From Eledone cirrhosa (taxonomy: Eukaryota): a DNA stretch of 64,000 nucleotides. The DNA lies in assembly GCA_964016885.1 (NCBI GenBank), contig OZ024758.1:39804001-39868000 (forward strand). Direction: 5' to 3'. Below, piece by piece: positions 3,067-53,567 of this stretch. Position numbers and translations under genes: made by a program. A model generated the notes under the pieces. It saw nothing but the letters and a program-made list of their open reading frames with translations, searched no databases and was not told where the DNA came from. Within the stretch, counting starts at the first letter, position 1. Every line of letters starts with the position of its first letter.

Positions 3067-3111
3067 ATATATAGTGTATATATACTGTACACAGTGTATA
3101 TATATCTATAT

Positions 3112-5655: not shown

Positions 5656-5822
5656 TGGTCATTCTTGACCGACAGAGGTCTTCGATATGTTAGGTTTGTA
5701 TATATAGATGTGAATTGATGTCCATGTGGGAGTCATTGATACCAATACTAGGGATGGCTGGTCTTCTATATTACTGTATAACACCAAAGATCTCGATCCT
5801 GTGTCATTGTCTTTGAGAAGTG

Positions 5823-7716: not shown

Positions 7717-7817
7717 TTATAAAATACTTGAAAAAAACTTAGAAAAAATGTTAATCAAAATCAAAATTTAATCCCAAAGAGAGGAAATTGGAACATTATC
7801 CACTGAAAGTTGCTTAA

Positions 7818-8024
7818 CCCTTTAGTGTCCAAACCAGCCAAAACCGGCCAGAATTCTCTACCTCTTTCTGTTGAAACTGGCTGTAACTGGTCGCTCAGAC
7901 TGATGTTAAGGTATTGTTCTCAAAATAAATACTTTCAAAATCTGATAGATTCAATATTATGTGAGATAAAGCCTTTACCATGAAAATATAATAGTATATA
8001 TAAAATAATGTGAATGCTAAAGGG
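7818..8024. mobile_element. piggyBac-type MITE
   Basis: TTAA-CCCTTTAG ... CTAAAGGG-TTAA. Confidence 0.85.
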
Positions 8025-8028
8025 TTAA

Positions 8029-8406
8029 CCCTTTAACATTTAAACCGGCAATAACTGGCCAGAGTTCTGTCCTCTTTTTCTTTTTAAACCACCCGTAACT
8101 GGCCACTCATACTGATGTTAAAGTATTGTTCTCAATATAAATAATATCAGATTCGATATTATGTGAGGTAAAGACTTTACCATGGAAATATAATAGTATA
8201 TATAGAGTAATGTAAATGTTATGTGAGATAAAGACATTACCATGGAAATATAATAGTATATATAGAGTAATGTAAATGTTATGTGAGATAAAGACATTAC
8301 CATGGAAATATAATAGTATATATAGAGTAATGTAAATGTTATGTGAGATAAAGACATTACCATGGAAATATAATAATATATATAGAGTAATGTAAATGTT
8401 AAAGGG
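8029..8406. mobile_element. piggyBac-type MITE with an internal 60-bp tandem expansion (x4)
   Basis: TTAA-CCCTTTAAC ... GTTAAAGGG-TTAA, sharing the TTAA at 8025-8028 with the previous copy. 60-bp units at 8161-8400. Confidence 0.85.
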
Positions 8407-9020
8407 TTAAACCCTGAAGTAAGGACTTTTAGGTCCCGAAATATTGGACAGATAAAAGAACAACAACAAAAAAACAAAACAAAGATTACCAGGTAACTTT
8501 TACTTTTCCTTACCTCATCTTATTGTCCATTTTGCATTGTTTAGCCTTCTATCTCTTTCAACGTTATATTTTATATAGAATGCTTTAAACAAACTACAAC
8601 ATTTAATTATATATCATCATCATCATCTTCAATTAACGTCCATCTTCCACACTAGCATGGGTTAGACGGGTCCCATTTAGAGGCAAGTGTGGGCTGGATG
8701 TTTTTTTGCTGTCTTCTACACGTCCAGTGTGGGTGAGATATATATATATGTATATATCATCACCATTTAGCGTCCATTTTTCCATTCTTGCATGGGTTAG
8801 ACGCTCTAGCGTAACTAGCGGGGGGGGGCGACCCCCCCCCCCCGGCTTTCCTCTCGGTCTAGGTGGGCCCCCTAGGCTATAATTCTAAACACATAACTTA
8901 TTACACATGTAATTACGAATCCTTAACTACAACAACTTAAAGAAAACCCTTAATCTCTAATAAGACTAGAAGTTAAGACCAATTTCTTGTTTATTTAAAG
9001 AATATAATATTTCGGATAAA

Positions 9021-9266
9021 ATGGCAACTGCATCTAAAAAATGTGTGGAGAATATTCAGTGGAATAAAAGCGTTACATTTTTTTTATTTGCTTTCTCCAC
9101 ATCTTATTTAGTTGAGTCAGGTTTCAGTCGGGTTATGCATCTGCTTTCAAAAAGTGGAAATCGCCTTGATATAGAAAGAAGAGGTGGTTTACGACTCTCT
9201 CTAACGGCTTTGACACCAAACATTGACAAATTAGTAGCCTTGCCTCAATCACAGGGATCTCATTAA
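9021..9266 (+). pseudogene. C-terminal fragment of a Buster/Charlie (ZBED5/SCAND3-like) hAT transposase
   Basis: 'FSTSYLVESGFS...RLDI..RGGLRLSLT.LTPNIDKLV...QSQGSH*' matches the Buster-type C-terminus. Confidence 0.75.
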
Positions 9267-10207
9267 AAACCGATTGTTATATTCTTTGATTTGTAAATAT
9301 ATATAAATGATTTGATATCTAAATTCTATATTATTCTATTTGTTTGAAATGTTGTAATACATGCTTATGTTAATCTCGATACTCAGGTTTTTAACCTAAT
9401 ATTTAATTAAAAGTATAATTATGCATGAGTATATACACACAAATATATATTTAGTTGGAATAAAATATAATGAACTTTCTAAAGTTGTAACTTGGTATCT
9501 GACATTCTGCTGTCCTTAAATATTCTGTCCAGAACTTTGACCTAATTGTCTTCCTCTATTGTAACACCCCTCCTCATCCTCTAACTGCTTTCCATTGAAT
9601 TTCATCTTTTATCTCCTTTTCAGCCGATGGATTTTGTTGATTTAGAAACCAGCCAATGAATACCATCGGTCAATATTCCTTTATATTTTGATATGTTTTT
9701 TATTCTTGTAATAAAATTAGTTTTCATTCAACACTGACGATAGAGAGCGGATGGAGGTATGTTGTATTTTCTTTGTATAATTTGTAAAATATAAAATATA
9801 TATATATATATCTTAATGAAAATACACATGCCAATATCTGATCCCTTGAAACGATCGTCTGTTAAAGTGTAAATCAATATTAATAGGAAGAACATGTTCT
9901 TTGTTTAATTTTTCATTGTTTTTCAATGTCTTATTTTGACTCTGTCTTCCAATTGTTTTACATTATTAATTAACTACATGTATTTTTTATGATTTTTCCA
10001 CATTTGGATTACATTGAGTTCTCTATACGGATTCGACACTACCGTTTACTCCGGTAGATTAATCTGTTATATATATATATTTCCTGGACTTTTGCTCTAT
10101 GTTTTGTTTTTCGTCGATTATTTGACGTGTTTTACATTCTTCGGTGTTGAATATCAAATCAAGCGAATTGCATTATTCCAACTGTGTCAATATAGTGCTC
10201 ATTAAGA

Positions 10208-12925
10208 ATGTTGCCTAAAAAAAATTACAAGACTGGAGCAACAAAGAGGAAAGAAGCTAGACAAGCTGCCAGGGAAGAATCTGCAAAGAAATGTCATCTA
10301 ATCACAAGTTTTCTGAAAAGTCAACAGTCTTCGTCAACAAGTAGTGACGCATCCCAAACCAATGTAACTGCCGGAATTTCCGGCGAGTCGGTCTGGTCAG
10401 ATGAACTGGAGAAACAGAAAAGCACTGGAGAGTCGCGAGAACCTGACGTCGAAGATGCCTCAGGTCCATCGACTATCTCAACAACCGTCGTAGTCACTGA
10501 AGATATAGTTCCAAATGGGGATCCAAACTCAATAGAGGGAAAAATGGCTGTATCGGAATCTGAAAATGAAAATGATTCAGAGGAAACTACATCGGCAAAA
10601 CAAATCCCAGAGCATGGGCCAGTAGAGTGCATGTTGAATTTACAAGAGAAGTATCCAAGCGACCCGAAACATTTCGAAGACAGACCATTGACGACACCTC
10701 TAATTCGTGCCCTCATGACTTTTGGTCCTTGTCAGCCAGGATTGAAAGATCATTTTGCTGATTTCCCTCTCGACTCGAACCACAGAAAATTCAACATCAG
10801 TTGGTACAAGAGAAAGTGTGCTGGAATCCATGAAGTTGACCGACACTGGTTAGTATACTCTCCTGAATCCAACAGACTATATTGCTTTTGTTGTTGGCTG
10901 TTTGCTGATAAAAATGCCGAATCTTACTCGAAGACTTGGGGTAATCCAGAGTGTGGGATGGCAAACTTCAAAAAGGGAATCGAAAAAATTGCCAATCATG
11001 AGAAAAGTACCATTCACATCAATGCACAAAAGCAATACTTCATGACAAAATATCGTTTGGACGCAAATAAAACGGTGATCGATAACCTCATCCATGAAGA
11101 GAAGCGAATTGAACGAAATCGCCAGATATTGGGGCGATTGCTTGATTGTACGTTATTTCTCACAAAACAAGGCTTGGCCTTCAGAGGTCACAGGGAATAT
11201 GCTGGACTTGGCGCCAAATCAGAAAATGAAGGAAACTTTATTGAATTGTTGAAATTGATAGCCAAGTATGATACGATCTTGGAAAGCCATTTCTTCTCAC
11301 CTGGGCGCACTAAAAGACAGCCTATGTACTTAAGTCCAAAATTACAAAACGAATTCATAGAATGCCTGGCGAACGAATGTACTCAACAAATAATCACGGA
11401 AGTGAAAGCGGCAAAATACTATTCAGTCATTGTCGATTCCACAATAGACATTTCGCATCAGGATCAATGCTCTGTGTCACTCCGATATGTATCGAAAAGT
11501 GGCCACGCACAGGAGCGTTTCCTGTCATTTTGTGAACTAAAATCAGCAGCCGCTGAATCATTTTTCGATACGCTTGTGAAAGTTCTTTTCCAGGATCTTT
11601 CTTTGGATGCTCAATATATTAGAGGACAAGCTTACGACGGAGCGTCAAATATGTCCGGCCATATTTCTGGGCTTCAGGCTAGAGTTAAAGAGGGATGCTC
11701 TTCGAAAGCTGTTTACGTCCATTGTTGTGCTCATAACCTGAACCTGGTGTTAATCGATGCTAGCCAATCGTCAATGGATGGTAAATTATTTTTTGGTACA
11801 TTGGAGAGCCTGTATGTTTTCTTAACATCAAGCTTGCCAAGGCTGAAAATCCTCGAAGAAGAACAAGAAAAACTATTGATTTCAACGGTATTAACATTAA
11901 AACGACTCTCAGATACCCGCTGGTTTAGTCACATTCAGGCTGTAGAGGCTACCATTAACAACTTACCGGCAGTAATGAGTGCACTAGAGAGGATAGTAAG
12001 TGGGGATGTTCGCAACACTGCTCCGAAAGTATTAGCTGAGGCCAGAGGTTTGCTACTAAATGTGAGCAAGTTTGAATTCATTTTCATGTTGAAGTTTTTT
12101 CAGAATTTACTTAAAAAGCTGCATTCTGTTTCACAATATTTGCAGAAGGAGGCTATCGACTTATATTCCGCGGACGTCATGATTAAAAATGTAGTAAAAG
12201 AAATTGAAGAAATCCGCTCAAATGAATATTTTGACCGAACATTATCAGACACTAAAAATCTCGCCGAGCAATGTCAAGTTGAACCAGAGTTTACAACAGA
12301 AAAACGGAAAAGAAAAAAGAAGCGTTTTCATGACGAAAATGCCAGTGACGAACCTCATGAGACGATGAGTCAGCATTTTAAACGGGACGTTTATTTCACT
12401 ATCCTAGATAGAATCATTAGTAGCTTTAACGAACGTTTTGCCGACTTGCACGGTCTAGTGAAGGATTTTTCGTGCTTGATACCGGCGCACTTCGACGACG
12501 ACGACACATGCAATAAAGAGAGAATCGATAATCTTGCGAAATTCTACGAGGGTGACATCAAAAATGACACTATCTTCGATGAATATTTATCATTCAAAGA
12601 TTTTTACAAGGAAGTGTGTTTAGATAAATCCATATCGAGTTCTGAGATCGTTCCGTTTATGATTTCTAAGGACTTAGATAGAGCCTATCTGAACGTGTTT
12701 GCCTTATACAAAATGTTCATAACTATTCCGGTTAGCTCGGCGCAGGCTGAGCGAACCTTCAGCAGGCTCAAACTGATAAAGAATTATTTGCATAGTACCA
12801 TGAGTGAAGAGCGGTTGAATGCTCTGGCAATGATGTACATAGAGCGAGAACTGGCTGAAAAAATTGACTTCAGCATCGTGATTGAAAAATTTTCTAAAGT
12901 AAAACATCGCAAATTAGAACTGTAG
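10208..12925 (+). CDS. hAT transposase, 905 aa (TTF-type zinc finger, DUF4371, hAT dimerization domain)
   Basis: Uninterrupted ORF with WLVYS...YCFCC, LAFRGH, IVDSTID, YDGASNM, HCCAHNLNL, TRW, AERTFSRLKLIK. Confidence 0.95.
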   Translation: MLPKKNYKTGATKRKEARQAAREESAKKCHLITSFLKSQQSSSTSSDASQTNVTAGISGESVWSDELEKQKSTGESREPDVEDASGPSTISTTVVVTEDIVPNGDPNSIEGKMAVSESENENDSEETTSAKQIPEHGPVECMLNLQEKYPSDPKHFEDRPLTTPLIRALMTFGPCQPGLKDHFADFPLDSNHRKFNISWYKRKCAGIHEVDRHWLVYSPESNRLYCFCCWLFADKNAESYSKTWGNPECGMANFKKGIEKIANHEKSTIHINAQKQYFMTKYRLDANKTVIDNLIHEEKRIERNRQILGRLLDCTLFLTKQGLAFRGHREYAGLGAKSENEGNFIELLKLIAKYDTILESHFFSPGRTKRQPMYLSPKLQNEFIECLANECTQQIITEVKAAKYYSVIVDSTIDISHQDQCSVSLRYVSKSGHAQERFLSFCELKSAAAESFFDTLVKVLFQDLSLDAQYIRGQAYDGASNMSGHISGLQARVKEGCSSKAVYVHCCAHNLNLVLIDASQSSMDGKLFFGTLESLYVFLTSSLPRLKILEEEQEKLLISTVLTLKRLSDTRWFSHIQAVEATINNLPAVMSALERIVSGDVRNTAPKVLAEARGLLLNVSKFEFIFMLKFFQNLLKKLHSVSQYLQKEAIDLYSADVMIKNVVKEIEEIRSNEYFDRTLSDTKNLAEQCQVEPEFTTEKRKRKKKRFHDENASDEPHETMSQHFKRDVYFTILDRIISSFNERFADLHGLVKDFSCLIPAHFDDDDTCNKERIDNLAKFYEGDIKNDTIFDEYLSFKDFYKEVCLDKSISSSEIVPFMISKDLDRAYLNVFALYKMFITIPVSSAQAERTFSRLKLIKNYLHSTMSEERLNALAMMYIERELAEKIDFSIVIEKFSKVKHRKLEL

Positions 12926-14466
12926 AACAAGTGATATGCTCGAATGTGAAAGTAAAGGTTTAGATGGACGATTTGTTGCACATACGAATTTTTGTTTGTG
13001 AATAATCGATTGCAAGACTAGTTTTACTGGATATTGTTTTTTTTTCTGAAGATAGACCACCGTCTTTGCAGTTAATAAAGTTTTCACGGAACATGCTAAC
13101 TCTGTAATCTATGATGTATTCTACTCTATTATAAATTATCTATTCTAGACGCCCGTATGAACATATTTTCTTGCAGCTGATGGAAATGAGCGTATGGAAT
13201 TGGTGGGCCCCCTTTAGATCGGATTTTTCCCCCCTGGCTTTAAAAGCTAGTTACGCCACTGGTTAGACGGGTCATCCACGCCAGGAGGCAAGTCTGGCCA
13301 GGGTTGGCCATGTGTCGCACCTTGCTCAGGTGAGGTCTGTAAATTTGGTGGGGTATTTTACAGCTGGATTCCCTTCCTAACATCAACCATGTTTACAGTG
13401 TGGAACTGGATGGCTCTGTTATGAGGAGGGACAGGCCAGTTGGCTGCACTGAACTCATCTCACAGTGGAACTATAATTTTGGGGGGCCTGGTACTGGGTG
13501 GCACCACTGTGAGGAGGGGTAGCCAGTCAGCTGCTCCAAACTCATCTCACGAGGTTACCACAGTTTTGGGGACCTGTACTAGATGATCCCGCTATAGTGA
13601 TGGTGTAGCTAGTTTATATGAATAAGTAAATCTGACGCAGGTATATTTCTACAGTTTACCAATGTACCGTACATACTGGCGCCAATGACGACCAATTTTT
13701 GAAAAAAAATAATAATCAACCTTCGGCCTCCAGGACATATGGTAGATATTTTGGACTTATATTATGGAAAAAGTAATGTCTTCGATGCTAGGAAATATGG
13801 TGAAAATGTAAAATTTCCACTGTTAAATCTATCCCTGCATTTTAAGTATTCTCTATTATCTCATACTGTTACTTTCTTATAAGTCCTATAAGAATGCATT
13901 TTTTGCTAAACTGCCATAGAGCAGACCTCTGAAGTGATAGAAGGATATAATTTATAGAGCATGCTGGAATACCACTGCTTACATTGGAGAGAATTTCTCT
14001 GGACAGAATGTTGATATCTACAGTTTACCAATATAGAAATATAACATTTCCACTGTTAAATCTATCTCTGCTTCTAAAGTATTCTCTATTATCTCATACT
14101 GTTTCTTTCTTATTTCAGAATATCAGATGACATTGGGATAAATTATTATTTTCAATCTTGGATACATCACCTCTATTTATCATCATTTGAAGACTAAAAC
14201 CTTCTAAACAGAACTTATATAACACTGTTTATATAAATCTATAGTTCAATTAGTGTGAAATATTTCCTCAAAACTGAGTTTATTTTCTTCACTATAAGAT
14301 GGTTTTGTATTTTAACTAAACTTGGATGAAACAGAAGTTTGTGTTATCTTCAGATATTAACTGAAATCACAGTTGAGGGAAATATAGAAGAATATTTTAT
14401 AAGAAATATAATATAAAAAATATTACAAGAAAAACATCTGTATATTCTGTTGAAGAAGAAATCATT

Positions 14467-15260
14467 ATGCCAAATAAATTGACAAAGAAGATTAAATGTG
14501 AAACACAATCTAAAGTGTTTAGTATTGCTGGTGAGATGACAAAGGTTAGAGAACAGAAGCCATATCACTGTGATATCTGTGGTATATCATTCTCTCAAAG
14601 AGGTACCTTAACTACTCACAAACGTATACATACAGGTGATAAGCCATATCACTGTGATATCTGTGGTAAATCATTCTCTGGGAAAAGTAGCCTAACTACT
14701 CACAAATGTATACATGCAGAAGAGAAATCATAATGCATTGATATCAGTGATAAATCATTCTCTCAAATTTGTGAATTAATGAGAATACAAATACATATCA
14801 TTGTAACATCTTAGGGAAAGCATTCTCTTTGAATGTTACATTAACTACACACACACATATACATACAGCTGGGAAGCCATATCACTTTGATATATTTGGT
14901 ACATCATTCTCTAAATGTTGTGGCTTCACTAGACACTAACATCTACAGGAGAGGAACCATATCACTGTGATGTCTGTGATAAATCCTTCTGTAAATGTGG
15001 TTTCACTAGACACCAACATATACATACAGGAGAGGAACGATATCACTGTGATGTCTGTGATAAATCCTTCTCTAAATGTTGTGGTTTCACTAGACACCAA
15101 CATATACAGGAGATGAACCATATCACTGATGTCTGTGATAAATCCTTCTCTAAATGTTGTGGTTTAATTAGACACTAACATATACAGGAGAGGAACTATA
15201 TCACTGTGATGTCTGTGGTACATCTTTCTCTTATAAAGATTACTTAATGCAACACAATTA
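14467..15260 (+). pseudogene. C2H2 zinc-finger array: two near-intact fingers, then a stop and several frameshifted fingers
   Basis: [40 protein letters not shown]. 'CATATCACTGTGAT' finger heads recur to ~15210. Candidate acceptors tttcag (~14119) and cttcag (~14353). Confidence 0.85.
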
Positions 15261-15899: not shown

Positions 15900-16460
15900 A
15901 AGCTCTATCAAATATTTAAAGGGTTCCATAGAAGCAGTTGACAGTTTCTGTTACCTGGGGTATCAAATAAGCAGTGGAGGTAGGTGTTCTGAAAGTACAG
16001 TAACAAGAGTAAGAACAAGATGGCAGAGGTTTAGGGTGTTACTACTGCTGCTAGCTACAAAAGGTTGTTTCACCAAATTGATGTGAGCATATGAACAGCA
16101 ATGCTGCATTGCAGTGAGGACCTCAGAAGATTGGATAGAAATGAAGCTTGAATTCTCCGATGGATGTGTAATATTAATATACATGAAGGGGAAAGTGTTA
16201 ATAAACTGAGAGAGAACCTGGGCATGAGAGGGAAAAGATACAGTATGCAGGAGAGGAGATTGCTGTGGTATGGACATGTGATGTGTATGAAGGTAGAGAT
16301 GCTGTATAAAAGGTTGACCACTTGAAATTGATGGAAGGGGAAGACCTAGGTATGCTTGGGATGTGGAGGTAAAAACTGACCTGACACCATTGTACCTCTC
16401 AAAGGTGATGACACAGGATTGAAATCTCTGGCATTATACATTACTGCAGGAGACCTGCAT
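15900..16460 (+). mobile_element. RTE LINE 3' fragment
   Basis: 'VDSFCYLG...SSGGRCSE' and 'LLWYGHV' remnants. Confidence 0.75.
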
Positions 16461-16714
16461 TCCCATGTCCACAGGTTGACACAACATTTAGTGGTTTGAA
16501 GTATGCTCCAATTTTATTCCCCTTCACATCTTAACACTCCACCCCCTTACCAGCTAAGTACACCACCCTGACACACCTCTCCAATCCCCACCCTACATAC
16601 ACACAACCCCACCCCCACTTTCACATCTGATACACCTCTCTTGACCAACCCATGTATACAAGTATGGAAAGCTTAACATGCTCTCCTCCAATGCTGCTGA
16701 AATGGCTAAACCCT

Positions 16715-16980
16715 CAGGCAACCCTGTAAGGTGGTCATGCAGGTGTCATGACAAAAGAGCACCAAGTCCTCTCTGTTAGGTAACATGACAAAAGAACACC
16801 TAACCCTCCCTGCAAGGTAGTCATGCTGATGACATGACAAATAAGCACCCAGTCCACCCTGTGAGGTAGACATGACAGAAGGCCCCTAGCCCACTCTGTA
16901 AAGTAGTCATGCTAGTGCTAGTGGCAAGACTGAAGGGACCCGAAGCACCCTTCAAAGTGATCAAATTGGTGACATGACTT
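16715..16980. repeat. Degenerate tandem repeat of roughly 40-55-bp units
   Basis: Recurring 'CATGACAAAAG..CACC...CTGTAAGGT.GTCATGC' (~6 units). Confidence 0.55.
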
Positions 16981-18221
16981 GACACCATTTTTTAGTTTAC
17001 TTCTAAAATATCTCATTTTTATTTTACTTCTAAACTATCTCATATATTTAAAAATTACTTATTTTAAAAAATTATTATTTATTTCTTAAAAAAATTACTT
17101 TTTAAAGATTATTTAAAATTTTTTAATATTTTTTAATATTTTTTAAATATTTTTAAACATTTTAAATAGTTTAAGTACTTTTTAAGTATTTTATTTTGTT
17201 AAAAGGGTTTTTTGAGTATCTTCTGAGATTAAAAAACATTTTTTTTTTTATTTTTCCAGAAATTTTTTCCAGAACTTTTAATATTTTAATATTTTTAATA
17301 TTTTTTAATTATTTAATATTAGAGTTATAACCAATAACTAATTCTGGCTATATATATCTTTCAACATTTATATCTTCGTCAAAATGGTCTCTTACTAACT
17401 AATAAATAAACAAAGCTGGGTTTTTCAGTATCTTCCTAATTTAAAACATTAAAAACATATAAATAATCTTATTAACTCAGTTAATTTAATTACTTACACT
17501 AAATATAAACCAGTATCCCTCATAACTTATTAAAACAATTATCTATAACATGATATAGCCATTTATCCACTCATATATCTATTCTTCTATCTATTGATTC
17601 TCCTATTTTCTACTTTATATCTATTTATTTTCAATTTATTATTCAATGTCTTTATATATATTTATTTTTTCTATATATCTATTTTTCTATATACTTATAA
17701 TAGTAAATATTATATTGTATTATATTAGAATTCTAACAATAATTAGTAAATATACGTAACATTAATATAAACGTAATACTTATTTACGTTACATGAGTTC
17801 ATCCTCTATAAATGTCTTTCTTCTCTCTATCTCTCTATCTATCTCATAACAAGGCGCCTCCTCTCTATTGAGGATTTTGTTAAAAATTTTATTTTTTGTT
17901 ATATCTTATTTTATTTTTATATTTTGTTATTGCCTCCTCCTTATTGAGGACGCCTTTTTGTGTAAACTCCCCCCTTTGTACTTGTCCCACTTTTGATGCC
18001 CTAGTGGCAAATAAAAGAAATATATCTATCTCATAACAGTAATTTTTTTCTCTCTCTTTCTTCTCTTTCTTCCCTATCTTTCCCCAGCGTAATTTAAATA
18101 AACGGTTGTTTTTTCAATTTTTCATACATTCATTTGCATATTCACACATAACTTTGAATTACCCCTAATAAGTTTCCCCTATCCAGCGAATTTCCGACCG
18201 TTATTTATAAAACAAATTTTG

Positions 18222-18286
18222 TATTTTATCTGATGAAAGAGCACCAAGATTGACTTGGTCGCCCTTGAAATATATATAATAAAATA
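18222..18286 (+). ncRNA. Type I hammerhead ribozyme motif (Penelope-like)
   Basis: TATTTTAT CTGATGA AAG..ACCAAG-loop-CTTGGT..CTT GAAA TATATA TA ATAAAATA. Confidence 0.7.
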
Positions 18287-19401
18287 AATATGCAAAAGTT
18301 CTATTTAAATTGTTGGGATACAACAAGCAAATATGTTTATAACTGATATAAAGCACTCAACAAGTATTTGGAATAAACATACGATATTAACAATCCTTTT
18401 GTATTTTATGTACTCAATTATATTATGTACTATATTGATTTATACTTCTCTCTATATGTGAGTATATATGTATATGTGTATATTGACATACATGTACATG
18501 CGTTCTATGCATTTTTATGAATATATGTCTGTCTGTATGTATGCATGCGTGACGCGTATCTACCAATTGGCTGAGGATGCACACACATGTATATATATGT
18601 ATATGTAAGAATTGTGTGTGTACATGTACATGTATACCCATACAATTTGATTGCAGATAGACATTACTAACAGCCATAAATGCATACCAGCTAATCTTAT
18701 ATATTTATATATATATATTAAAAACATTTTTTATAAAAAATATTTTATTTAATGACACAAAGGATGGATAACATTAAATTAAAAATTCATTTATGCTTTG
18801 TATGTATATATTATATACGTGGTTAGATATGGTGTGTATTTTGTGAGTGTGTGTGTATATATATATATTTATGTGTATTTTTGCGTGTGTGTACGTGTTA
18901 TATGATATGTAGTTCTCTAGCAATATATAGATTTCTTAATGTTTAGATTCCAAGTTTTAATATATTGATCTCAATTTTTAAACTAAATATCTAATCATAG
19001 TTAAACAATGATTAATTTCTCATATTATGTATGTATATTCCATTCATGATTATTAATATTTCTAATTTTATTTATTCATTTCATCTCAATTGTTAAGTTA
19101 ACTTAATATGACATGACTTAATGTGTTCATTCTTTCCCCCTCTCTCTATCTCTCTATTTTTCTCTCTGTCTGGTGTTTTGATATATCTCTCTCGTTTTTC
19201 TCTCCTTTTTCTTTTTTCTTGTTTTCTTTCTTTCTTTCTCCCTTTTCTCTCTCTCCGTCCTTTTCCTTATCTGTAACACTACGACTTATTTTAAAAATAC
19301 TAATATAAGTAAACAACTCCACTATCCCTGAGTCTTCCAAAAGTAACGGTTGCATTTTGTAAGGGTATGTCAATATTTATTTATAAAACTGTTATATATT
19401 G

Positions 19402-19466
19402 TATTTTGTCTGATGAAAGCATACCATAATTTAACATGGTATCCTTGAAATATGTATAATAAAATA
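19402..19466 (+). ncRNA. Type I hammerhead ribozyme motif (Penelope-like)
   Basis: TATTTTGT CTGATGA AAGcATACCAT-loop-ATGGTATcCTT GAAA TATGTA TA ATAAAATA. Confidence 0.72.
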
Positions 19467-19534
19467 GATATGGTTTTATAAATATAGTTTCCATTTGTTA
19501 ATATCGTATAATAAAATAAATATAGTTTTATAAA

Positions 19535-19915
19535 TCATCATCACCGTTTTACGTCCGTTCTTCCATGCTAGCATGGGTTAGACGGGTTGTCCTGTTGTGG
19601 GCAGTGTCTGGTCGGCTGACCATGCCTTGCTCATACAGGAACTGATTTTGGCTTTTCTATAGCCGGATGCCCTTCCTAACACCAACCTCATTTACAGTGA
19701 GTGTTGCGTGCATTTTTCCGTGGCGCCTATACGTCCACTTTACAGTGTGGGCTGGGTGCTTTTTTTGTGTGGCACCTCCACGACCACTTTGCAGTGGGAG
19801 GGTGTGGGGGCATATTGTCTATATGCTTCAGCTTGAACCCATGGGAGGTCGGGTACTCTGTATTACTGCGTGACGCCAGAGGTCACGGTCGTGTGTCATC
19901 GCCTTTGAGAGGTGT
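19535..19915 (-). mobile_element. Non-autonomous retroelement with RTE-type tail
   Basis: Homologous to 3112-3370, with the same 'CATGGGTTAGACGGG' tail and (GAT)n end. Confidence 0.75.
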
Positions 19916-20174
19916 GTGTTTATATATATATATATACAAATAAATTATCGAGAATCGGAATCTCGGCCCATGAAATAATGAAACACAATCAAAGTGCTCA
20001 ATAGTTTGGATAAACCAGAGCTATAACTAACGTTTAAATACCAACACACTGAGATAATGCTTAAAATCATTCGCACAGCCGAAAAAAACGACCAAGAAAA
20101 TTCGGGTCAGACAAATAATAAATATATATATATATATTTTTTCTTTTAACATATATGTGTATATAAAATATATA

Positions 20175-20249
20175 CAGGGGCTCCCCAAAAATGTATACAC
20201 TCTTCAACTACAGTCTATGTAAGTGTGTATACATTTTGGGGGGACACTG
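20175..20249. mobile_element. Tc1/mariner-type mini-MITE
   Basis: TA-CAGGGGCTCCCCAAAAATGTATACAC...GTGTATACATTTTGGGGGGACACTG-TA. Related copy at 49837-49912. Confidence 0.75.
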
Positions 20250-20702
20250 TAATATACATATCATTAAACGTATCTCCTACATGTGTATAAATAAATATAC
20301 ATGTATTTTATTAACAATTTTCTGTAGAATCTGTTAAACATGGAAGAAAATGTGGAGACTAAATAAAATTAACGTGTTGGTCACATTAACTTAATAATAT
20401 AACTATATATTAATGAAATATGTCGAAATAAAAGTTGTAATTGTGACAAAAATATTGATTCGGTAGTTTATTATGACCAAGACTACTCATTATCCCACTA
20501 CATCTTTTGTATACTATATATATACTGTATATATACTGTTTATATATATATACACACACACATATAATTGCGTATTCACACATTATCTTAGTAATGAAAT
20601 AATAAGTTTAGTAAATTGTTCAAAAGGCAATTCCTTCCTCAATCATTACATAGATGTGTGTATGTAATAATTATTTTGTATTGTGTGTCTATTTAGGAAT
20701 AT

Positions 20703-21805
20703 GTATGTGTAGATGTGTGTGTGTGTAACACAGTAGATGTGTGTGTATGTAACACAATAGATGTGTGTGTATGTAACCCAGTAGATGTGTGTGTATGTAA
20801 CTCAGCAGATGTGTGTGTGTGTAACACAGTAGATGTGTGTGTATGTAACTCAGCAGATGTGTGTGTATGTAACACAGTAGATGTGTGTGTGTGTGTAACA
20901 CAGTATATGTATTTGTATGTAACACACTAGATGTGTGTGTATATATAACACAGTAGATGTGTATGTAACACAGTAGATGTGTATATATAACACAGTAGAT
21001 GTGTGTATATATAACACAGTAGATGTGTATATATAACACAGTAGATGTGTATGTAACACAGATGTGTATATATAACACAGTAGATGTGTGTGTATGTAAC
21101 ACAGATATGTGTGTATGTAACACAGTAGATGTGTATGTAACACAGTAGATGTGTATATATAACATAGTAGATGTGTGTGTATGTAACACAGATGTGTGTA
21201 TGTAACTCAGCAGATGTGTGTGTGTAACACAGTAGATGTGTGTGTATGTAACTCAGCAGATGTGTGTATGTAACACAGTAGATCAGTAGATGTGTGTGTG
21301 TGTAACACAGTATATGTATGTGTATGTAACACACTAGATGTGTGTGTATATATAACACAGTAGATGTGTATGTAACACAGTAGATGTGTGTGTATGTAAC
21401 ACAGTAGATGTGTATATATAACACAGTAGATGTGTATGTAACACAGTAGATGTGTATATATAACACAGTAGATGTGTGTGTATGTAAACAGATGTGTGTG
21501 TATGTAACACAGTACATGTGTGTATGTAACACAGTAGATGTGTATGTAACACAGTAGATGTGTATATATAACACAGTAGATCTGTGTATATATAACACAG
21601 TAGATGTGTGTGTATGTAACACAGTAGATCTGTGTGCATGTAACACAGTAGATGTGTGTATGTAACAGTATATGTATGTGTATGTAACACACTAGATGTG
21701 TGTGTATATGTAACACAGTAGATGTGTATGTAACACAGTAGATCTGTGTGTATGTAACACAGTACATGTGTGTATGTAACACAGTAGATGTGTGTGTATG
21801 TAACT
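20703..21805. repeat. Variable ~20-26-bp minisatellite GTAACACAGTAGAT(GT)nAT
   Basis: Direct inspection. A shorter array is at 50792-51228. Confidence 0.95.
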
Positions 21806-22339
21806 AAAGTGTAACGTACATTACGAATGGACAACTAAAAGATTTTAACTTGTTTTTTAACAATTCATGGTGGAAAAAAATTTAAATTGTCTCAATTCAG
21901 ACCATAAAGGGCCGCAACACATGGTGTTTGACACACTTACCGGCTACATAGCCTCGGGGTCTATTTTACTGAGACCGGCTACATATCTTCTTCCTAAAAT
22001 CTTCCAACATAATTTTATACAAGAACCACATGTGAAGTTACTAATAAAATAATTAATAATTAAACACTTCAGTAAATCCTTCAAATGATATCTCAGTAAT
22101 GAAATAATTAATAATTGTTATAAATACCTCAAAATTCCTCATTAATTAAACCCAAGACAGGTAAAAACTCCAGAGTCTTTCAATCGGACATGAAACAAAT
22201 TAATTTCTAATGGAAGAAGTAAAGATTTTAAAGTCAGCCAAGGGAGATCACTCTCAGCGACTTATCGTAATTCTCGTTCCGGAATTAATCCGGATTAAAA
22301 TATTCCGGTGTATTTTGTGTGGAGGAAACCGGATTTAGG

Positions 22340-22660
22340 CGGTGATAGCACGCAGTACATGAACGTATGGTTCGTGAGTTCGAATCCCAGACCGGGTGGT
22401 CTGTACGTCGGGGCCTTGAACAAGACACTTTATTTCTCTTTGTTTTATTTTACCCAGCTGGCAAAGATAATAAGTTGTAATAATTATAGTGGAAACGTTG
22501 TTACATAGAATTGTCACACTGAATCTCCCTGAGAAGAATGTCAACGGTATACGTGTCAATGAAATACTCAGACACATTATAATATAAGACGGGTTCTACA
22601 TGTATTTCAAAGGGAAGCCATGCCATACGTCTTACTGAATCTCCCTGAGAACTACGTATA
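22340..22660 (+). mobile_element. tRNA-derived SINE
   Basis: B-box GAGTTCGAATC and core 'CCTTGAACAAGACACTTTATTTC'. Confidence 0.7.
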
Positions 22661-22663
22661 TAC

Positions 22664-23887
22664 TAGTGACTATCAGACATAGTGTATCTAGGATCACATT
22701 ATCTAATGTACAGTACAGTAGTTAGTATTAGTGGCTATAAGACATAGTTTATCTAGGACTACATTATCTAATGTACAGTACAGTAGTTAGTATTAGTGGC
22801 TATAAGACATAGTATATCTAGGACTACATTATCTAATGTACAGTATAGTGGCTATCAGACATAGTGTATCTAGGACTCCATTATCTAATGTACAGAATAG
22901 TGGCTATCAGACATAGTGTACCTAGGACTACATTATCTAATGTACAGTATAGTGGCTATCAGACATAGTGTACCTAAGACTACATTGTCTAATGTACAGT
23001 ATAGTGTCTATCAGACATAGTGTATCTAGGACTACATTGTCTAATGTACAGTATAGTGGCTATCAGTCATAGTGTACCTAGGACTACATTATCTAATGTA
23101 CATTATAGTGGCTATCAGACATAGTGTATCTAGGACTACATTATCTAATGTACAGTATAGTGGCTGTAAGACATAGTATATCTAGGACTACATTATCTAA
23201 TATACAGTATAGTGGCTATCAGACATAGTGTATCTAGGACTACATTATCTAATGTACAGTATAGTGGCTGTAAGACATAGTGTATCTAGGACTACATTAT
23301 CTAATGTAGAGTATAGTGGCTATCAGACATAGTGTATCTAGGACTACATTATCTAATGTACAGTATAGTGGCTATCAGACATAGTGTATCTAGAACTACA
23401 TTATCTAATGTACAGTATAGTGTCTATCAGACATAGTGTACCTAGGACTACATTATCTAATGTACAGTATAGTGGCTATCAGACATAGTGTATCTAGGAC
23501 TACATTATCTAATGTACAGTATAGTGGCTGTAAGACATAGTATATCTAGGACTACATTATCTAATGTACAGTATAGTGTCTATCAGACATAGTGTATCTA
23601 GGACTACATTATCTAACGTACAGTATAGTGGCTATCAGACATAGTGTATCTAGGACTACATTATCTAATGTACAGTATAGTGACTATCAGACATAGTGTA
23701 TCTAGGACTACATTATATAATGTACAGTATAGTGTCTATCAGACATAGTGTACCTAGGACTACATTGTCTAATGTACAGTATAGTGTCTATCAGACATAG
23801 TGTACCTAGGACTACATTGTCTAATGTACAGTATAGTGTCTATCAGACATAGTGTACCTAGGACTACATTGTCTAATGTACAGTATA
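22664..23887. repeat. 52-bp minisatellite (~23 units)
   Basis: Unit gtatagtggctatcagacatagtgtatctaggactacattatctaatgtaca, with internal hairpin TACATTA-TC-TAATGTA. Confidence 0.96.
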
Positions 23888-23927
23888 GCAGTTAGTATTT
23901 GTGGCTATCATTATTATAGACTTCAAG

Positions 23928-24097
23928 TCGGTAGAGGGTCAGACGCCATGCTTTCCAGCATAGTTACGTCCCTTTACGATCTGAGTTCAAATCCCGCCGA
24001 GGTTGACTTTGTCTTTCATCCTTACGGGGTCGATAAAATAAAGTACCAGTAATGCACTGGGTAATTGCTGGCCTTGTGCCTAAAGTAGAAATAATTA
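23928..24097 (+). mobile_element. tRNA-derived SINE (second family)
   Basis: GAGTTCAAATCC B-box and 'CTTTCATCCTTACGGGGTCGATAAAATAAAGTACCAG' core. Confidence 0.85.
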
Positions 24098-24584
24098 TTA
24101 TAGACTTCAAGTAAATCTTTGTCAACTTACCTCCTTCACATATAATCAATGTGTTGTGTTGTTAGTTGTTACTAAACAACCAAAGAAATAATCTCTTTGT
24201 TATCAAATTAAAAGTTTCAAAGATGTTATCAGCTTTATTTCACGACATTAACGTTGGTGTATCTTCTTCATCTTTAGTCATGAATTGATATCTTGTCAGA
24301 ATGAAGTAGTGAGGCTGACTTTATGTCTTTAGCTACAGATTTGATAGGAAATATATATATATTAGGTTGATATGTGGTCTAAAATATATATATTGTCTAT
24401 AAATGACTGATAGCAGATGTTCTGGTGAAATAGTAGTTTTACTACTACAGATTGTAATGGAACTCTTAGTAGACACAATTGTAAAGTAAGAATAGATATG
24501 ACAGTGTAAGACTGATGTCGGGGAAATAAACTTGTGTATATATATATAATTGTTACACAAGATATAATTAGATTAATTAAAGTT

Positions 24585-24772
24585 ATAATTGTTTCTACTC
24601 TAGGCACAAGGCCAGCAATTAACCAGTGCATTACTGGTACTTTATTTTATCGACCCCGTAAGGATGAAAGGCAAAGTCAACCTCGGCAGGATTTGAACTC
24701 AGATCGTAAAGGGACGTAACTATGCTGGAAAGCATGGCGTCCGACCCTCTACCGATACTGCCAATTCACCGC
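24585..24772 (-). mobile_element. tRNA-derived SINE (second family), inverted relative to 23928-24097
   Basis: Near-perfect reverse complement of 23928-24097. Confidence 0.85.
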
Positions 24773-25670
24773 AATGAAGGCAGCAGGTACTCGGTGTCGT
24801 TGTGCATGTTTCAACTCTCTTCCCGGTGTCATACGTAAAAAGTCCCTGATATAATTTAATACCTTCAGACACAGTTCCAATCGTTTTTAGTTTATTGTAA
24901 ATCAGAAAGTATCACTCAATAAAATATCAATTATATATCAATAAGAAAACCTCTAGGTAGTCTCACTGACTGCTAGAAATAGCAGCGATATTACCCATTA
25001 CAACTGCTCTCTCTCTCTATATATATATATATACACACATATATGTACGTATGTATGTATATGTGTATATATGTGTATGAATGAGTGTGTATGTGTGTAT
25101 ATGTGTACATAGGGTTTTGGTATATGTACGTTTGGTGAACATATGTGTATTTACCTGTATGTATGTGTGAGTGTGCGTTCTATACGCATTTATGCGTGTA
25201 TATTTATATATGTATTTATAATTATATGTATATATACACACACGAACATATATTTATATGTGTATTTGGTGCATACAATCGTATGTGTGCGGGTATATGT
25301 GTTGCGCCGGTTTACGTCCGTGCGCGCCTGTTTATGTGTACGTATATGTATATGCATGCATGCCGTGAGTTTTCGCATATGCTCGTGTATAAATGTGTGT
25401 ATGTATATATTTAATTATTATTACTTTTATGATTTTAATAACATCTGTCATTTTCGTTCAACTAATTTATTTACATTATTCTGGACTCCGAAGCCGAGCA
25501 TCATTCAGTTTCCTTAATAGAATATTAGTCTACGACTCCATTTACACCATAAACGTGGTTTTGTCTTTACGTGTAATTGTTGTCACCGCTCCACATAACG
25601 ACGTATTATCTTCTTTTTCCCGTTCATTGCCAGGGAACGTCTTCACGAATCAAAGCATAAATTATTTTCA

Positions 25671-28600
25671 CGAGCTGACGTACCCGGCTTCGCCCGGGTA
25701 AACAGATGATAAAAGAAAAGGTCCCTATTTACTCCCTTCACAACTCTGTATGTTAGACTGACAGACAGGCACACAGACAGATAAACTGGGTGGCGATTGT
25801 GGAACGCCGCACGTATACACACATACACGCACACAAACTTACACACACACCCGTGCACTTACACACACGCACACACTCACACATGTTGATAGTTTTTACT
25901 TTCTGTGGAACGCTGCACGCACGCACACATACATAAACATACGCGCACGTACATACACACGCACACATGTTAATAGTTATTGCTTTCCTTCCCCTCTTAT
26001 TTCCACACACATCACACACACACACACACACGTCTCTACACTGACACATATACATAGTGTATCCAACACAGCGTTCACTTTGCCTCTCTCTCGCCTCTCT
26101 CTCTCATTGGCATTATACATATTAATTTAAGTTTGGCGTCGTTGAGGTGGGCGGAGTTGTTTGAAACCTATGAACCAATGATAATCGAGAATTATGACAC
26201 ATGGAATATTGACATTGTTGAAATTAATATATAGACTAGCTGACGTACCCAGCTTCGCCTGGGTAAACAGATGATAAGAGAAGACAGGTAAAAGAGAAAA
26301 TGTCTGTATTGGGTGTTTCTCTGGTTACAGTGTGAGGCGAGTCCGTGGTGTCTGTGTGATACAAAAAAACAGTAAAAATAATCTTCCAGATATACCAGAT
26401 TCTTCGTTGTCCGGTTTGTGCATAGTATATGAACAATTCTAGGTGCTCCCACCTAGAATAGTGACCTCTAGGAGATGGTTCCTCTTCTGCCTGACTGGAA
26501 AACGTGTATCATTGCATAGACGTGGTTGTTCCACGTTTCTCAAAAGGATGATGGAAGTTCCAATCTGTTATATTATATGTAGATATAGATATAGATAATT
26601 AATAAAAAAGATGTCCGTCAATGTAAAGAAGGTCCCTATTTACTTGAAATGGTTTATACAAATGCCAAATTAATATGGATATGGATAACATGCTTATCTA
26701 TAAGTGGTCAGCTATAATAATAAACCAACAAATTATATGACACAAACATTTATTCAGTAATTTCCAGGCTCTTAGCCACTGAGTAATAGACAGTCAATAT
26801 TGCCCAGAGTTCAACTCGGGGAGGTGGCCTGGTTTAAACTCAAAATGGCGGATCCTTCTACTTCGAAAATAGAATCGTTTTTCAATATTACTCTAGCCCT
26901 GGCCGGCCATAGGCACCAAACTTTTTGCCAGACTCAGCATATGATGAGGTTCTATTACCACTGCAATCAGAAGCGATAAATTTGAAGGCAATTTCTACCA
27001 ATACTTGTTGGTTTTTATTGCTCATTATCGACAATAAATGACATTGAACATAAATGATAACTCTGCCAAAGCTCACAATACAGATGAAAGGAAACCAATG
27101 TCCGAATCATATACGTCACTTATCGATAGCATTAAAGATATGCATACATCAGCTCAAAGCTTCATTATAGACAATATTTAGGTTTGTTCCTCTGTTAGTG
27201 GTATCAATTGCAAATTGTATACCATCAGGATCGCACACTCGAGATGCAGCAACATAGAGTTGCCCATGGCTGGATCATTCAAGCAGACACCGACTCGCTT
27301 GAAAGTCTGTCCCTGTGCCTTGTTGACAGTCATGGAGAAGGCCAAATTGACGGGAAACTGTCTCCTTTGCCAAATAAATGGCAGCAGATCTTCACTTGGT
27401 CTCAGCATGATCCTCGGAATGAGAACCGATTCCTCTCTGCCTGGGAGTTTAGCTTCTAAAACTCTTCCATTAATCAATCTCTCAACAATCAATCTGGTAC
27501 CATTGCAAAGACCCATTTTATGATTGATATTTCTAAGCAATATAATCGGCAAACCCTTTTTCAACCTCAAAATATGTGGGGAAAATCCGGGTATTTGAAG
27601 TGAATTCAGATACTCAGTCGGAACATCCATACTGTTCTGCTGATTAGGCTCCATTGCATCCGCACTGACGGTCAACCATTCCTCTCCAGGAAACATTCCG
27701 GCTACTTGTGAATTTATTTCATCGACCGTTGCATTCGTATGAGTTAGAATAACACGTTCCGATATTCAGGAGATATTCTGCCAAAAAGTTCTGTCCAATG
27801 CCTCCAGCAAATATCTGTGTGCCATTGGAGCCTTGTCCCAAATAATCAGAGACGTATTGCGTATAAGGCCCGCGAGTTCACTTTGTCCTGTAATATTACA
27901 GAAACTCAACTCATCTGGAGCCAATGGAGCCTTGAAGCATGAGTGGAAGGTCCTTCCACCACTCAGCAAAGTGGCAGCGATGCCCCTGGTGGGCACAGGG
28001 AGAGCAATCTTCCTCTGAGCTCTGACTGCCGATAACATAGTGTTGAAACAGAATGTCTTTCCGGTGCCTCCTGGAACATCTATGAAAGCACAAAGTTGCT
28101 CATTAGTGGAAATCGAGTGGAGAGCGCCATCAACCAATTCTCTGTGAGATTGGGTCAACATTGGCATACGTTCATCCACAATACGTTGCTGTTCCAGTGG
28201 AACAAACTGGAATAGTTCCCTCCGATCGAGTGGCAACCGTCTAAGCTGCAATCTCATGTTCAATGCTAAGACACGTTGCCGCATTTCTTCATCAGGAATT
28301 GGTAAATTGAAATCTGTTAAACATTTCAAATGAACTTCGAGCAGTTGCTCAATATTGAGCAAAACAATAGCCTTCATCAAATGTTCATCATAGACCTGAA
28401 GATGATGCCTAAAATCATCAGCCATAATTCCCCAATGGCGTTCAAATAACTCTCTTGGATCGGCAGGATTGCAGAATCCTAGAATCGTGACAAACAACTG
28501 CCTTATTCGAGCTGGCATCTGTGTTGTTCCTGCAGCTTCCATGGCGTTATTCCATTCAGCGTCATCCTGAAGGAGTCCCAGATGCTGACACACAGCCTGG

Positions 28601-31600
28601 TATCTTTTATATTCCACGGCATTGATTGTTTTCAAATCAGCGAAGCTCTGTTTACCTCTCGAAAAATCACTATGCAACAGAATTCGGAGATGAAACACAT
28701 CACCAGATGCTGGATGGACATTACAAACCAGTCCAATAGTCATGAATCTCAACTTTTGTTTTCTATCATTCCATTTCTTTCCCTTCTTATCCCACGTATA
28801 GTGCGAAGGGAAATCGCAGTAGAGTTGCTTTTGATCCGGGTTCAAAGCATGTTCCCTATTATGCTTGAACCACTCAGTCAATTCCGTCTTAGGAGGTGGT
28901 GCGTTAGCAATTCTTTCGGCACCTCTTCTAGTGTCCTTAAAACAGACCATTTGCCTATTCTCTAAGTAAACCGTCAGTTTCTGAACGCTGGGTTTGCGTT
29001 CATTGAGATCAAAATCGAACAATCTCCAGCAAGCTTCGCTAGATCCAATCAAGCGAACATCCTGGAACCTGCCAACTTCATCTCCTTGGTTCGCTTCCTC
29101 ATTCCTGACATTCATCATTGCCCCATCATGACCTTTGTAAACATATTTGAATAGATATTTGCAAGCTTTCACTGAGCTACAAATTTCCACATTAATATGA
29201 CAACGATATTTCATAATCAAATATGGATTGTATGGCACAACCCATTGATTTGTAACCTGTCGACCGTTTACATTTCCGACCAAACCGCCATCGGCAGGCG
29301 ACCGTCTTCTGTATGAGGGATGACATCCCCATCATTCCAGGAAGTGTTCGTGACAAAAGATTTCGGAAAGTGCTTACTGCATTGGCCATTTTTCATGCAA
29401 GGCGCTTTCCGATTTGCCACTCCGCATTGGTTGTGCACCATTGACTTTGCCACCAAGTTGCATAGTGCCTCATTCTCCGGCAGTTCAGCACACACAATGC
29501 TGTCGACATCCTCAGCACATCACAATTTGCAATCTCTATGTAAAATGATCAGCAAATGTGCATGTGGCAATCCTCTTTTTTGGAATTCAATTACGTATGT
29601 AAAAGCAACTATACCTCCAAAGATTCCCTTTTTTTCCACATCATCCATTATCTTTTTCAGATATCCTTTGAATACTCTTGCCACAATATCAGGACGGTCC
29701 TTTGGCTGTTGTCCTGGCAAAAGTGAATCCTTAATATCAGTCCATTCAGGATTGCATGTAACTGTTATAAACAAATCTGGCTTTCCAAACTTTCTGACAA
29801 TAGCCATTGCATCCTGATAGCGAATGTTCATATATCTCGGGCCGCCGATGAACGACGATGGCAAAATGATGCGTCGACCAATTTGCTTGTAATTGGCATC
29901 ATCGGCTGTTATCGCATCCTGTATATTATTATACAATTCAGCTCTGATATGTTGCTGATGTGTAGCTATATAATTTAGCCTTTGATTTTCGATCTTTGCG
30001 TATGCCATACAACAGTATTCCTGGAACAATCTGCTGGCTTGAAATAGCGCATTTCTCTGTTGATTCCTCTCGTTCAAATGGAACGCGTAAAAGTCGCAAA
30101 TCGAATTATTGTGTCTATTGCCACCTCCCTGTTGATGCTGATTCTCATGATCATCTAAATGAACAGACATGTTCCATCCATTTTCACCTTTTGGGAATAA
30201 AAGAACATAATGCAATGGATGGTATGTCCTATTTGACTCATTGATAGTTTTGAGACCACCATCTCTGCGATTGAGGGCGATATCTCTCGATCCAGGCTTA
30301 TCGTCCATCAACACAGCAACTTCACGAAATCCTTCAGGGGCATTATATCGCCGTTCGTGTTGATTCCTTGGCACTGCGTCAGCCTTAATCACCAATGTTT
30401 GTTGCTGAATATTTTGCAGTTCAGCCACCAACATGAAATCCATAACATAAGGATTACACTGTCTAAGCCATGATTGCAAATCACGGATCAAATCACTTAA
30501 CCTTTGCCGTTCAAGTTCAGTTATATTTCCCGGCAACTTCATCCAACCGATCCTGATATCCTCCTCCGATTCACTATAATTTGGATCGTTAATGTAAATT
30601 TGAGCGAATCAAGGCCTCTCCCCTGGGGTAACTTCTAAATTACCGATACAATGATACAAACGGCATTGAATGACAACATTCGGTTGCCATGCTCCACTCT
30701 CAAACATCTCACTAACTCTCTGCGATGCTAAAGCTAATAAATTGTTAATTTGCCGCGAATATTTGCACAGTAATCTACCTCGGTCTCATTGATCACCCCA
30801 CATACTTAGTATTTTAAACTCCGGTGACTCCCCATCATCCGGCATTCGCAAGGGTTCTAGTTGAACTGCTCCTTTGTGACAGCACATTGTGGTCCACGTC
30901 TTTTCGTGCCACCAAAGCAATGCTCCACAATGTGGAGACCCTGCTCGTCCACCAATCTGACAATGACACGGTTGCCATGATCCATTTTTAATATCATTTG
31001 TTCGCCTTCTAGCCTCTTTACTGGAATGAGGAGCACTTTGCGACGCATTCCTTGAACTTCTGTATTGCGCTGGCGCTGTTCAGCCAGCTCCTCTTCATCC
31101 ATCGGAGCACGCCATTGCTGCTGAATTCTGGCCACCTGCTGATGATGCTCAGCCAGTTCGTTTTTCAACCATCGCAGCACTCCGTCGCCGCTGTAGTTCA
31201 CTGTTTGATAAAGTCGAATTGCTTTTCTTATCAGTATTCATTTGGAGCAATTGTAAAAAAAATGACACAATAATAAATATAAAAGATGTCCGTCAATGTA
31301 AAGAAAGGTCCCTATTTACTCCCTTCACAACTCTGTGTATGACAGACAGGCACACAGACAGATAAACTGCGCGGCGATTGTGGAACGTCACACGCATACA
31401 CGCATGGAAACGCGCACACACACGCAAACTTACACACTCACACATGTTGATAGTTTTTACTTTCTGTGGAACACTGCACGCACGCACACAGACATAAACA
31501 TACGCGCACATACATACACACGCATACATGTTAATAGTTATTGAACACAGCATTCACACTCTCCCCTCTCACTCCCTCATTGGCATTATGCATATTAATT

Positions 31601-31708
31601 TCAGTTTGGCGTCGTTGGGGTGGGCGGAGTCCTTTGAAACCTATGAACCAATGATAATCGAGAATTGTGACACACGGAATACTGACGTTCTTCAAATTAA
31701 TATATAGA
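25671..31708 (-). mobile_element. Composite Helitron (RepHel module plus two non-autonomous units)
   Basis: 5' A|TC at 31708. 3' hairpin ACCC(G/A)GGCGAAGC(C/T)GGGT followed by CTAG (26236) or CTCG (25671). RepHel ORF fragments inside. Confidence 0.9.
27178..31201 (-). pseudogene. Helitron RepHel (HUH replication initiator + Pif1-like helicase), disrupted
   Basis: LFITVTCNPEW, EFQKRGLPHAH, KYLFKYVYKG, GGTGKT, FSMTVNKAQGQT. In-frame stops, frameshifts and a 360-bp deletion at 27788/9. Confidence 0.95.

Positions 31709-53488: not shown

Positions 53489-53567
<79 letters not shown>

Follow-up and report, generated by a model that had tools for sequence, protein, structure and literature searches.

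The DNA analysed here (the window: 64,000 nucleotides of Eledone cirrhosa, contig OZ024758.1, positions 39,804,001 to 39,868,000 of the forward strand) contains two hammerhead ribozyme motifs, both of them type I hammerheads of a single many-copy, non-coding family. This family was likely moved in the manner of Penelope elements, and the two copies were probably joined when a younger insertion entered an older copy.

Results

The features of the locus are given below with their window positions and strand.

17300-18201, plus strand: repeated upstream flank of copy 1, with no Pfam match
17852-18038, no strand assigned: separate repeat inserted in the copy 1 flank, with a 16-base target duplication (17836-17851 and 18023-18038); a contig with the empty site exists
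18202-18213, plus strand: outer helix I of copy 1, 5' strand only; same sequence as 19378-19389, with no partner strand immediately behind copy 1
18222-18286, plus strand: hammerhead copy 1, type I, with 8-bp helix I, CUGAUGA, helix II, GAAA and AUA triplet
18275-18291, plus strand: left copy of a 17-base direct repeat that spans the predicted cleavage site of copy 1; candidate target-site duplication
18284-18393, minus strand: inverted piece of the family 3' tail (about +37 to +146 past the predicted cleavage site)
18394-18885, no strand assigned: middle of the spacer, TA/TG/CA-rich, including a low-copy stretch
18886-19377, plus strand: upstream flank of copy 2, the last bases of which resemble the pre-motif letters of most family contigs
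19378-19484, plus strand: hammerhead copy 2 with a complete 12-bp outer helix I (core unit 19402-19466)
19485-19509, plus strand: first part of the family tail, up to +48 to +51, including the inverted match at 19495-19509
19507-19535, plus strand: right copy of the 17-base repeat (19507-19523), then an 11-base outer helix I strand (19525-19535)
19531-19913, no strand assigned: interrupting repeat related to several other stretches of the window (e.g. 3107-3371), followed by a TA tract

The window consists of animal DNA rich in repeats; C2H2 zinc-finger genes, a hAT transposase, and Helitron and AP-endonuclease/RT remnants occur in it. The hAT-type transposase frame is uninterrupted over 909 amino acids (10196-12925; DUF4371 and hAT dimerisation domain), and C2H2 zinc-finger repeats in decay lie at 14377-15231. 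The stretches 21380-35189 and 50797-64000 form a duplication with an offset of about 29 kb and 93-98% identity, inside which lie an AP-endonuclease/RT element and a Helitron with Rep and PIF1 domains. An imperfect palindrome at 20116-20313, with a relative at 49809-49966, is probably a small inverted-repeat DNA element.

Two type I hammerheads on one strand

The first-pass annotation had proposed two hammerheads on the same strand, and both were indeed found on the plus strand, with a start-to-start distance of 1180. Both possess the CUGANGA and GAAA core, the U16.1-H17 site and the type I order, that is helix I, CUGAUGA, helix II, GAAA, an AT-rich 6-base linker, UA and the 3' strand of helix I. 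In copy 1 the CUGAUGA occupies 18230-18236, GAAA 18267-18270 and the AUA triplet 18276-18278, the palindromic helix III strand reads AUAUAUAU, and the cut is predicted at 18278/18279; in copy 2 CUGAUGA is located at 19410-19416 and AUA at 19456-19458, with a predicted cut at 19458/19459. Since both copies show the ordinary type I order, they are not type-SGC non-circularly permuted hammerheads, with which, as far as the accessible text of PMC10085705 describes them, they have the core alone in common.

A strict descriptor fitted 2 of the 41 CUGANGA sites in the window, and two motifs were obtained in none of 100 block-wise dinucleotide shuffles of it; the shuffle mean was 0.04 per 64 kb at the loosest of three descriptor settings and 0.0 at both stricter ones. 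A relaxed descriptor fitted 4 of the 41 sites, adding another hammerhead family, at 35776 (minus) and 36310 (plus), which the strict descriptor used for the shuffle test misses. These two cores, with palindromic helix III, GUA site and a 10.1-11.1 mismatch, lie in a stretch (35612-36470) whose two arms, each about 310 bases long, face head-to-head with 92% inverted identity; it also has an inverted tail piece at 35958-36162 and TA tracts on either side. This is probably the family counted as the first in the first-pass annotation. A further CUGAUGA, at 16826, is followed by no GAAA and belongs to a tandem of about 86 bases (16721-16913) that folds no better than shuffles (z -0.6).

The hammerhead model was absent among the 25 Rfam matches at E<=10 in 16000-21000, and likewise at gathering score in the whole window. 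The microRNA matches of Rfam were discarded as microsatellite noise. A partial tRNA match at 2880-2937 (33.9 bits) is possibly the head of a tRNA-derived SINE, and sequence near 42090-42130 (plus strand) is similar to it, by translation only.

The two copies are 79% alike. Outside helix II, the 51 aligned bases hold three differences (copy 1/copy 2 positions 18228/19408, 18274/19454 and 18287/19467), each an A in copy 1 and a G in copy 2 on the ribozyme strand; they may be compatible with fossil A-to-I editing in copy 2, a pattern of three sites that was spotted post hoc. No third copy of the motif, the tail or the flanks was detected in the window by nhmmer, and a candidate decayed inverted hammerhead near 18721-18781 was dropped, its score being reached by 11 of 100 shuffles.

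Pairing of the helices and computed folds

Helix I has 8 of 8 pairs in each copy. In copy 2 it continues beyond an internal loop as the outer helix, in which 19378-19389 pairs with 19473-19484 over 12 bp. With regard to a loop 1-loop 2 tertiary contact, this copy thus has an internal loop in helix I, but the helix lengths depart from the canonical 6/4 geometry. Helix II is composed of AAG/CUU (3 bp), a mismatch and a further 7-8 bp, which is longer than had been given before; in copy 1 it amounts to 11 bp with one mismatch and one bulge. Comparison of the two full copies, on which the covariation test rests, gave ten helix II pairs common to both: seven are identical, three are altered on both sides (G-C to A-U, C-G to U-A and A-U to U-A, all Watson-Crick) and none is altered one-sidedly. 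The rough chance that the six differing sites make up three whole pairs out of ten is 1e-4, or by estimate about ten times higher if the bulge can be placed freely. These compensatory pairs back the earlier statement that the structure is conserved, with a stem II that has diverged and is still paired.

In the fold z-scores against shuffles copy 1 reached -2.9, the 65-nt copy 2 -1.3, and copy 2 including its outer helix -3.0. As a monomer, helix III is predicted to consist of 2 bp and a 4-nt loop, at a cost of 2.9 kcal/mol each, and its eight palindromic bases could form an 8-bp duplex between the copies. The strand-swapped double hammerhead was computed at -25.7 kcal/mol versus -21.3 kcal/mol for two free monomers; the best cofold, at -26.4 kcal/mol, is not a hammerhead. 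The dimer action suggested in the first-pass annotation stands as a structural possibility, at the level of the computed fold. Dimer action is also implied by the short palindromic helix III, in the present family as in the variants described in the available part of PMC4209133; according to the same source, such hammerheads of Penelope pseudo-LTRs (pLTRs) cut poorly in vitro and only as dimers.

The monomer ribozyme would be weak, given a helix III of 2 bp, the A10.1-U11.1 pair and the AUA site; AUA is a natural triplet, yet it was the slowest of four tried in one viroid hammerhead (PMC1636495, from the text available). Cutting would occur as a strand-swapped dimer or with protein help, and would then trim multi-copy transcripts. 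At the present locus the ribozyme is probably a passive relic.

A many-copy family in public sequencing contigs

Contigs from four public runs (X1, X5, X6 and X7) were matched at 80% likeness to 17300-19100, a range outside which copy 2 and the 280 bases before it lie. Within X1, one within-motif variant is common to 115 contigs, 55 contigs run on past 18292 with the sequence found behind copy 2, and 95 plus 19 contigs have different letters upstream of 18202, ending like the copy 2 flank. A paralogue in X7 differs at eight sites, six of them in stem-loop II and the remaining two not displayed, and X5 contains the locus itself with 99% identity (2 differences, 18074-18287). These contigs indicate a multi-copy family comprising about a hundred variants or more. 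At copy 1 the summed depth was very unequal among the runs (534,000 in X1, 105 in X5, 0 in X6 and 15 in X7) and was therefore rejected as a measure of copy number; it drops upstream of each motif, which is a weak measure of 5' truncation.

Letters of (TA)n type precede 18284 in 35 X1, 2 X5 and 1 X7 contigs (38 in total, from three runs), which places the 3' end of the family, about +140 after the predicted cut site, in TA microsatellites. One X1 joint, with a depth of 675, has an inverted tail head-to-head with a truncated motif and is, judged by its sequence, a join of two arms in other copies of the family.

The pattern scan of viral contigs gave no match; in metagenome contigs the 3' pattern had none and the 5' pattern 16, of which 0 fitted the hammerhead descriptor. 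No description of the family was found in the literature, exclusive of supplements, on hammerheads in octopus or retrozymes in cephalopods, and the words 'ribozyme', 'hammerhead' and 'retrozyme' are absent from the main text of the octopus repeat annotation (PMC13282606).

Layout of the flanks and the spacer

The summed depth of the copy 1 flank in X1 is about 3,000-13,000 outside the insertion nested in it and 25,000-100,000 beside the motif. That insertion (17852-18038) has 187 bases, is high-copy and contains two similar small hairpins; 44132-44309 is a diverged relative (E 0.0016). In the same run, depth in the copy 2 flank climbs from about 6,000 to 43,000 over 18886-19100. No significant likeness between the two upstream flanks was detected beyond pyrimidine tracts: the scores of the flank-to-flank and tail-to-flank alignments were reached by 1, 12, 31, 21, 65 and 96 of 100 shuffles, the best alignment being a pyrimidine tract. 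Sequence comparison likewise gave no recurrence of the family tail upstream of either motif.

The inverted tail piece directly follows copy 1, overlapping it by 9 bases (18284-18292), and holds one 6-bp hairpin; the whole tail folds no better than shuffles (z +0.3). Its last 15 bases (18379-18393) are the exact reverse complement of 19495-19509, a match with an expectation of 0.0006, and its outer end adjoins (TA)n-like letters in other copies of the family. Past 18390, two X5 contigs match the sequence behind the motif in reverse complement; one X1 contig crosses the motif and then switches to the opposite strand at 18364.

Further into the spacer, 18733-18830 is low-copy, with a depth of 2-4 and 0 differences in X5 and X7; part of 18394-18885 was skipped as repeat in the contig matching. 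X7 gives low-depth cover of 18733-18830 and 18913-19100 and little of the copy 1 upstream flank, a gap that is not evidence. Summed depth in X1 is 821,000 and 541,000 over 18276-18397 and 95 at 18703-18763. The question raised before, whether the 1.2-kb spacer is itself a repeated unit, can be answered in the negative, as it is a mosaic of the inverted tail piece, low-copy microsatellite DNA and the flank of copy 2.

The same mosaic bears on the proposal that the motifs bound one retrozyme monomer of 1.18 kb, or act as direct pLTRs around captured DNA, to be released by double cleavage as a dimer. The copies do lie on the same strand, their helices I and III are cross-compatible, the double-hammerhead fold has the energy given above, and captured host DNA of 0.9-1.5 kb with direct pLTRs on both sides is on record (in the part of PMC3846280 available). 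Against this, the copies are far from identical and their flanks unrelated, the depth of the spacer spans four orders of magnitude in one run (about 95 to 820,000), and the spacer starts with an inverted piece of the family. Moreover, the tandem units of animal retrozymes typically measure about 300 bp (PMC7229834), and the maximum in a vertebrate survey was 972 bp (10.64898/2026.07.22.740005), as far as these accounts could be followed in the text available. The retrozyme-like unit of the first-pass annotation is therefore unsupported, because of the uneven depth and the inverted piece at the start of the spacer, and we regard this alternative as very improbable.

How the two copies came together

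Judged from the sequence, we somewhat favour a nested insertion, in which a younger two-armed insertion (18293-19506) would have entered an older copy beside its predicted cleavage site. The 17-base direct repeat is identical at 17 of 17 positions, and 19525-19535 pairs 11/11 with 18203-18213, the orphan strand of copy 1; consequently, excising 18293-19506 together with one copy of the repeat restores copy 1 in full, up to the point where the repeat at 19531-19913 and the TA tract truncate it. The piece 18293-19506 itself has the inverted tail on its left and the direct arm with copy 2 on its right, and the overlaps at its junctions are 9 and 3-4 bases. No contig bridging the 18292 junction is present among the pieces listed (32 of 7310). 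Since the middle of the insertion is low-copy and host-like, nesting needs a capture step.

The same family might have given rise to this arrangement without nesting, if copy 2 were a partial tandem for which the reverse transcriptase copied an already cleaved RNA to its 5' end and then switched templates at +51; in that case the inverted tail next to copy 1 would be an independent event and the duplicate a fossil of cleavage in vivo. In accordance with this, the duplicate at 19506-19535 begins at most 4 bases from the cleavage site, and 28 of its 30 positions agree with copy 2 itself, one site alone favouring copy 1, and one X1 contig turns back after 18279, the first base past the cut site. 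However, two extra coincidences have to be accepted: the downstream part of copy 1 is lost exactly where the overlap of the duplicate ends, and an isolated inverted tail shares 15 bases with the copy 2 tail at a place where the loose ends in X1 and X5 differ. We consider the partial tandem unlikely, though it is the foremost of the alternatives.

The probable Penelope link

That the family moved as a Penelope-type element is the part of our interpretation in which we have the most confidence, and it appears quite probable. The earlier suggestion of a Penelope relic holds as far as the architecture is concerned (a tail piece in inverted orientation, an end with (TA)n beside it in other copies, and varied upstream flanks) and fails for the protein, as no RT or GIY-YIG remnant was detected. 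The 19 stop-free pieces of 16973-18517 gave 0 relevant Pfam matches for Penelope RT or GIY-YIG; none was found in the 12 long ORFs of the window, and the frames of 18520-19530 were inspected by eye. Since no remnant of a Penelope protein was found in the window or the flanks, we infer the mobilising protein from the architecture alone.

In the available portions of the literature, Penelope insertions are characterised by an inverted 5'-truncated copy, a one-sided tail and a bias for (TA)n or microsatellites (10.1101/2021.04.23.441226), and solo pLTRs with unrelated DNA captured between them and target duplications are described (PMC3846280). Here, too, one arm is inverted and truncated and carries the longer tail, 18284-18393 reaching about 90 nt past the end of the direct arm. 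In the in vitro system of PMC11167929, again from the accessible text, cleavage and extension affect both strands, copying begins at two internal positions, the targets are AT-rich and include the element's own pLTR, and the hammerhead is active only with protein; the anole element could insert in vitro without its ribozyme, and RNA ends at the ribozyme's cut site were not observed. What the hammerhead does in Penelope elements is described as unclear in the part of 10.1101/2021.04.23.441226 at hand.

That a LINE-type enzyme (RTE, CR1, Tx1) or a DNA element moves the family, the paired changes in helix II being the product of hairpin-driven template switching and not of selection on the RNA, can almost be dismissed: inverted repeats can be perfected by strand switching, AP-endonuclease/RT elements are abundant in the window and no Penelope ORF was seen, but this would leave unexplained why the catalytic core is exact, the AUA site is present, the helices follow a three-way layout and the inverted arms end in (TA)n.

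Discussion

The motifs resemble the pLTR hammerheads of metazoan Penelope elements (Cervera and de la Pena 2014, PMC4209133) in being type I with a long helix II and a short palindromic helix III, and in occurring as many dispersed single copies without ORF, with covarying families within a genome. They differ from these, as far as the text available goes, in several details: helix I is 4-5 bp there and 8 bp with a 12-bp outer helix here, the present family has no extra nucleotide between A9 and 10.1, and A10.1-U11.1 replaces the usual G-C, a G variant being found in 69 X1 contigs and in the X7 paralogue.

The locus shares further features with Penelope insertions in the accessible parts of PMC3846280, 10.1101/2021.04.23.441226 and PMC11167929, namely an inverted truncated arm together with a direct arm, unequal arm ends, a short candidate duplication on the flanks, targets rich in AT or of (TA)n type, a probable secondary insertion into a relative and unrelated DNA between the ends. 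Compared with what these accounts give, the offset of the arm ends is about 90 nt against a published Penelope tail of 30-40 nt, the candidate flanking duplication has 17 bases versus 8-10 in the rotifer cases, and the tail has no open frame, whereas in anole and rotifer elements an ORF starts within the pLTR plus tail.

Animal non-LTR retrozymes (PMC7229834; Li, Clavereau and Pollet 2026, 10.64898/2026.07.22.740005), which in the portions available are proposed to be non-autonomous derivatives of Penelope, are likewise non-coding, AT-rich and of type I, with many monomers. Unlike them, as described there, the present locus has no head-to-tail tandem unit and the flanks of its two copies are unrelated; other copies of the family could form arrays.

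As a route to the nested arrangement it can be envisaged that a Penelope-type RT/GIY-YIG protein binds the tail of roughly 150 nt behind the ribozyme and nicks the AT-rich DNA of helix III/helix I in copy 1 in a staggered way, at a distance of about 17 bases. Both ends would then prime copying, which would start at two internal positions within the RNA, +48 to +51 (overlap of 3-4 bases) and +138 to +146 (overlap of 9 bases). Of the two arms so produced, the short one would be inverted, and the long, direct one would contain copy 2 and its flank along with, probably, host DNA that was captured.

A much more speculative extension, to which we give little credence, is that the ribozyme-plus-tail cassette of roughly 250 bases targets itself: the nuclease would prefer the palindromic AT-rich DNA of helix III and the cut site, new copies would home into old ones, a second same-strand hammerhead would be placed within dimer reach, upstream host DNA would be carried along and many chimeric subfamilies might be founded.

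Hammerheads in Penelope terminal repeats, their action as dimers, inverted arms and the capture of host DNA are already published, and the locus adds one hammerhead family to a class known from many animals. Its value is that of a clean test case, with a possible target duplication across a ribozyme cleavage site and priming overlaps at both ends. Such a case would reveal the position at which the nuclease cuts relative to its own ribozyme, and the transport of host DNA by short cassettes.
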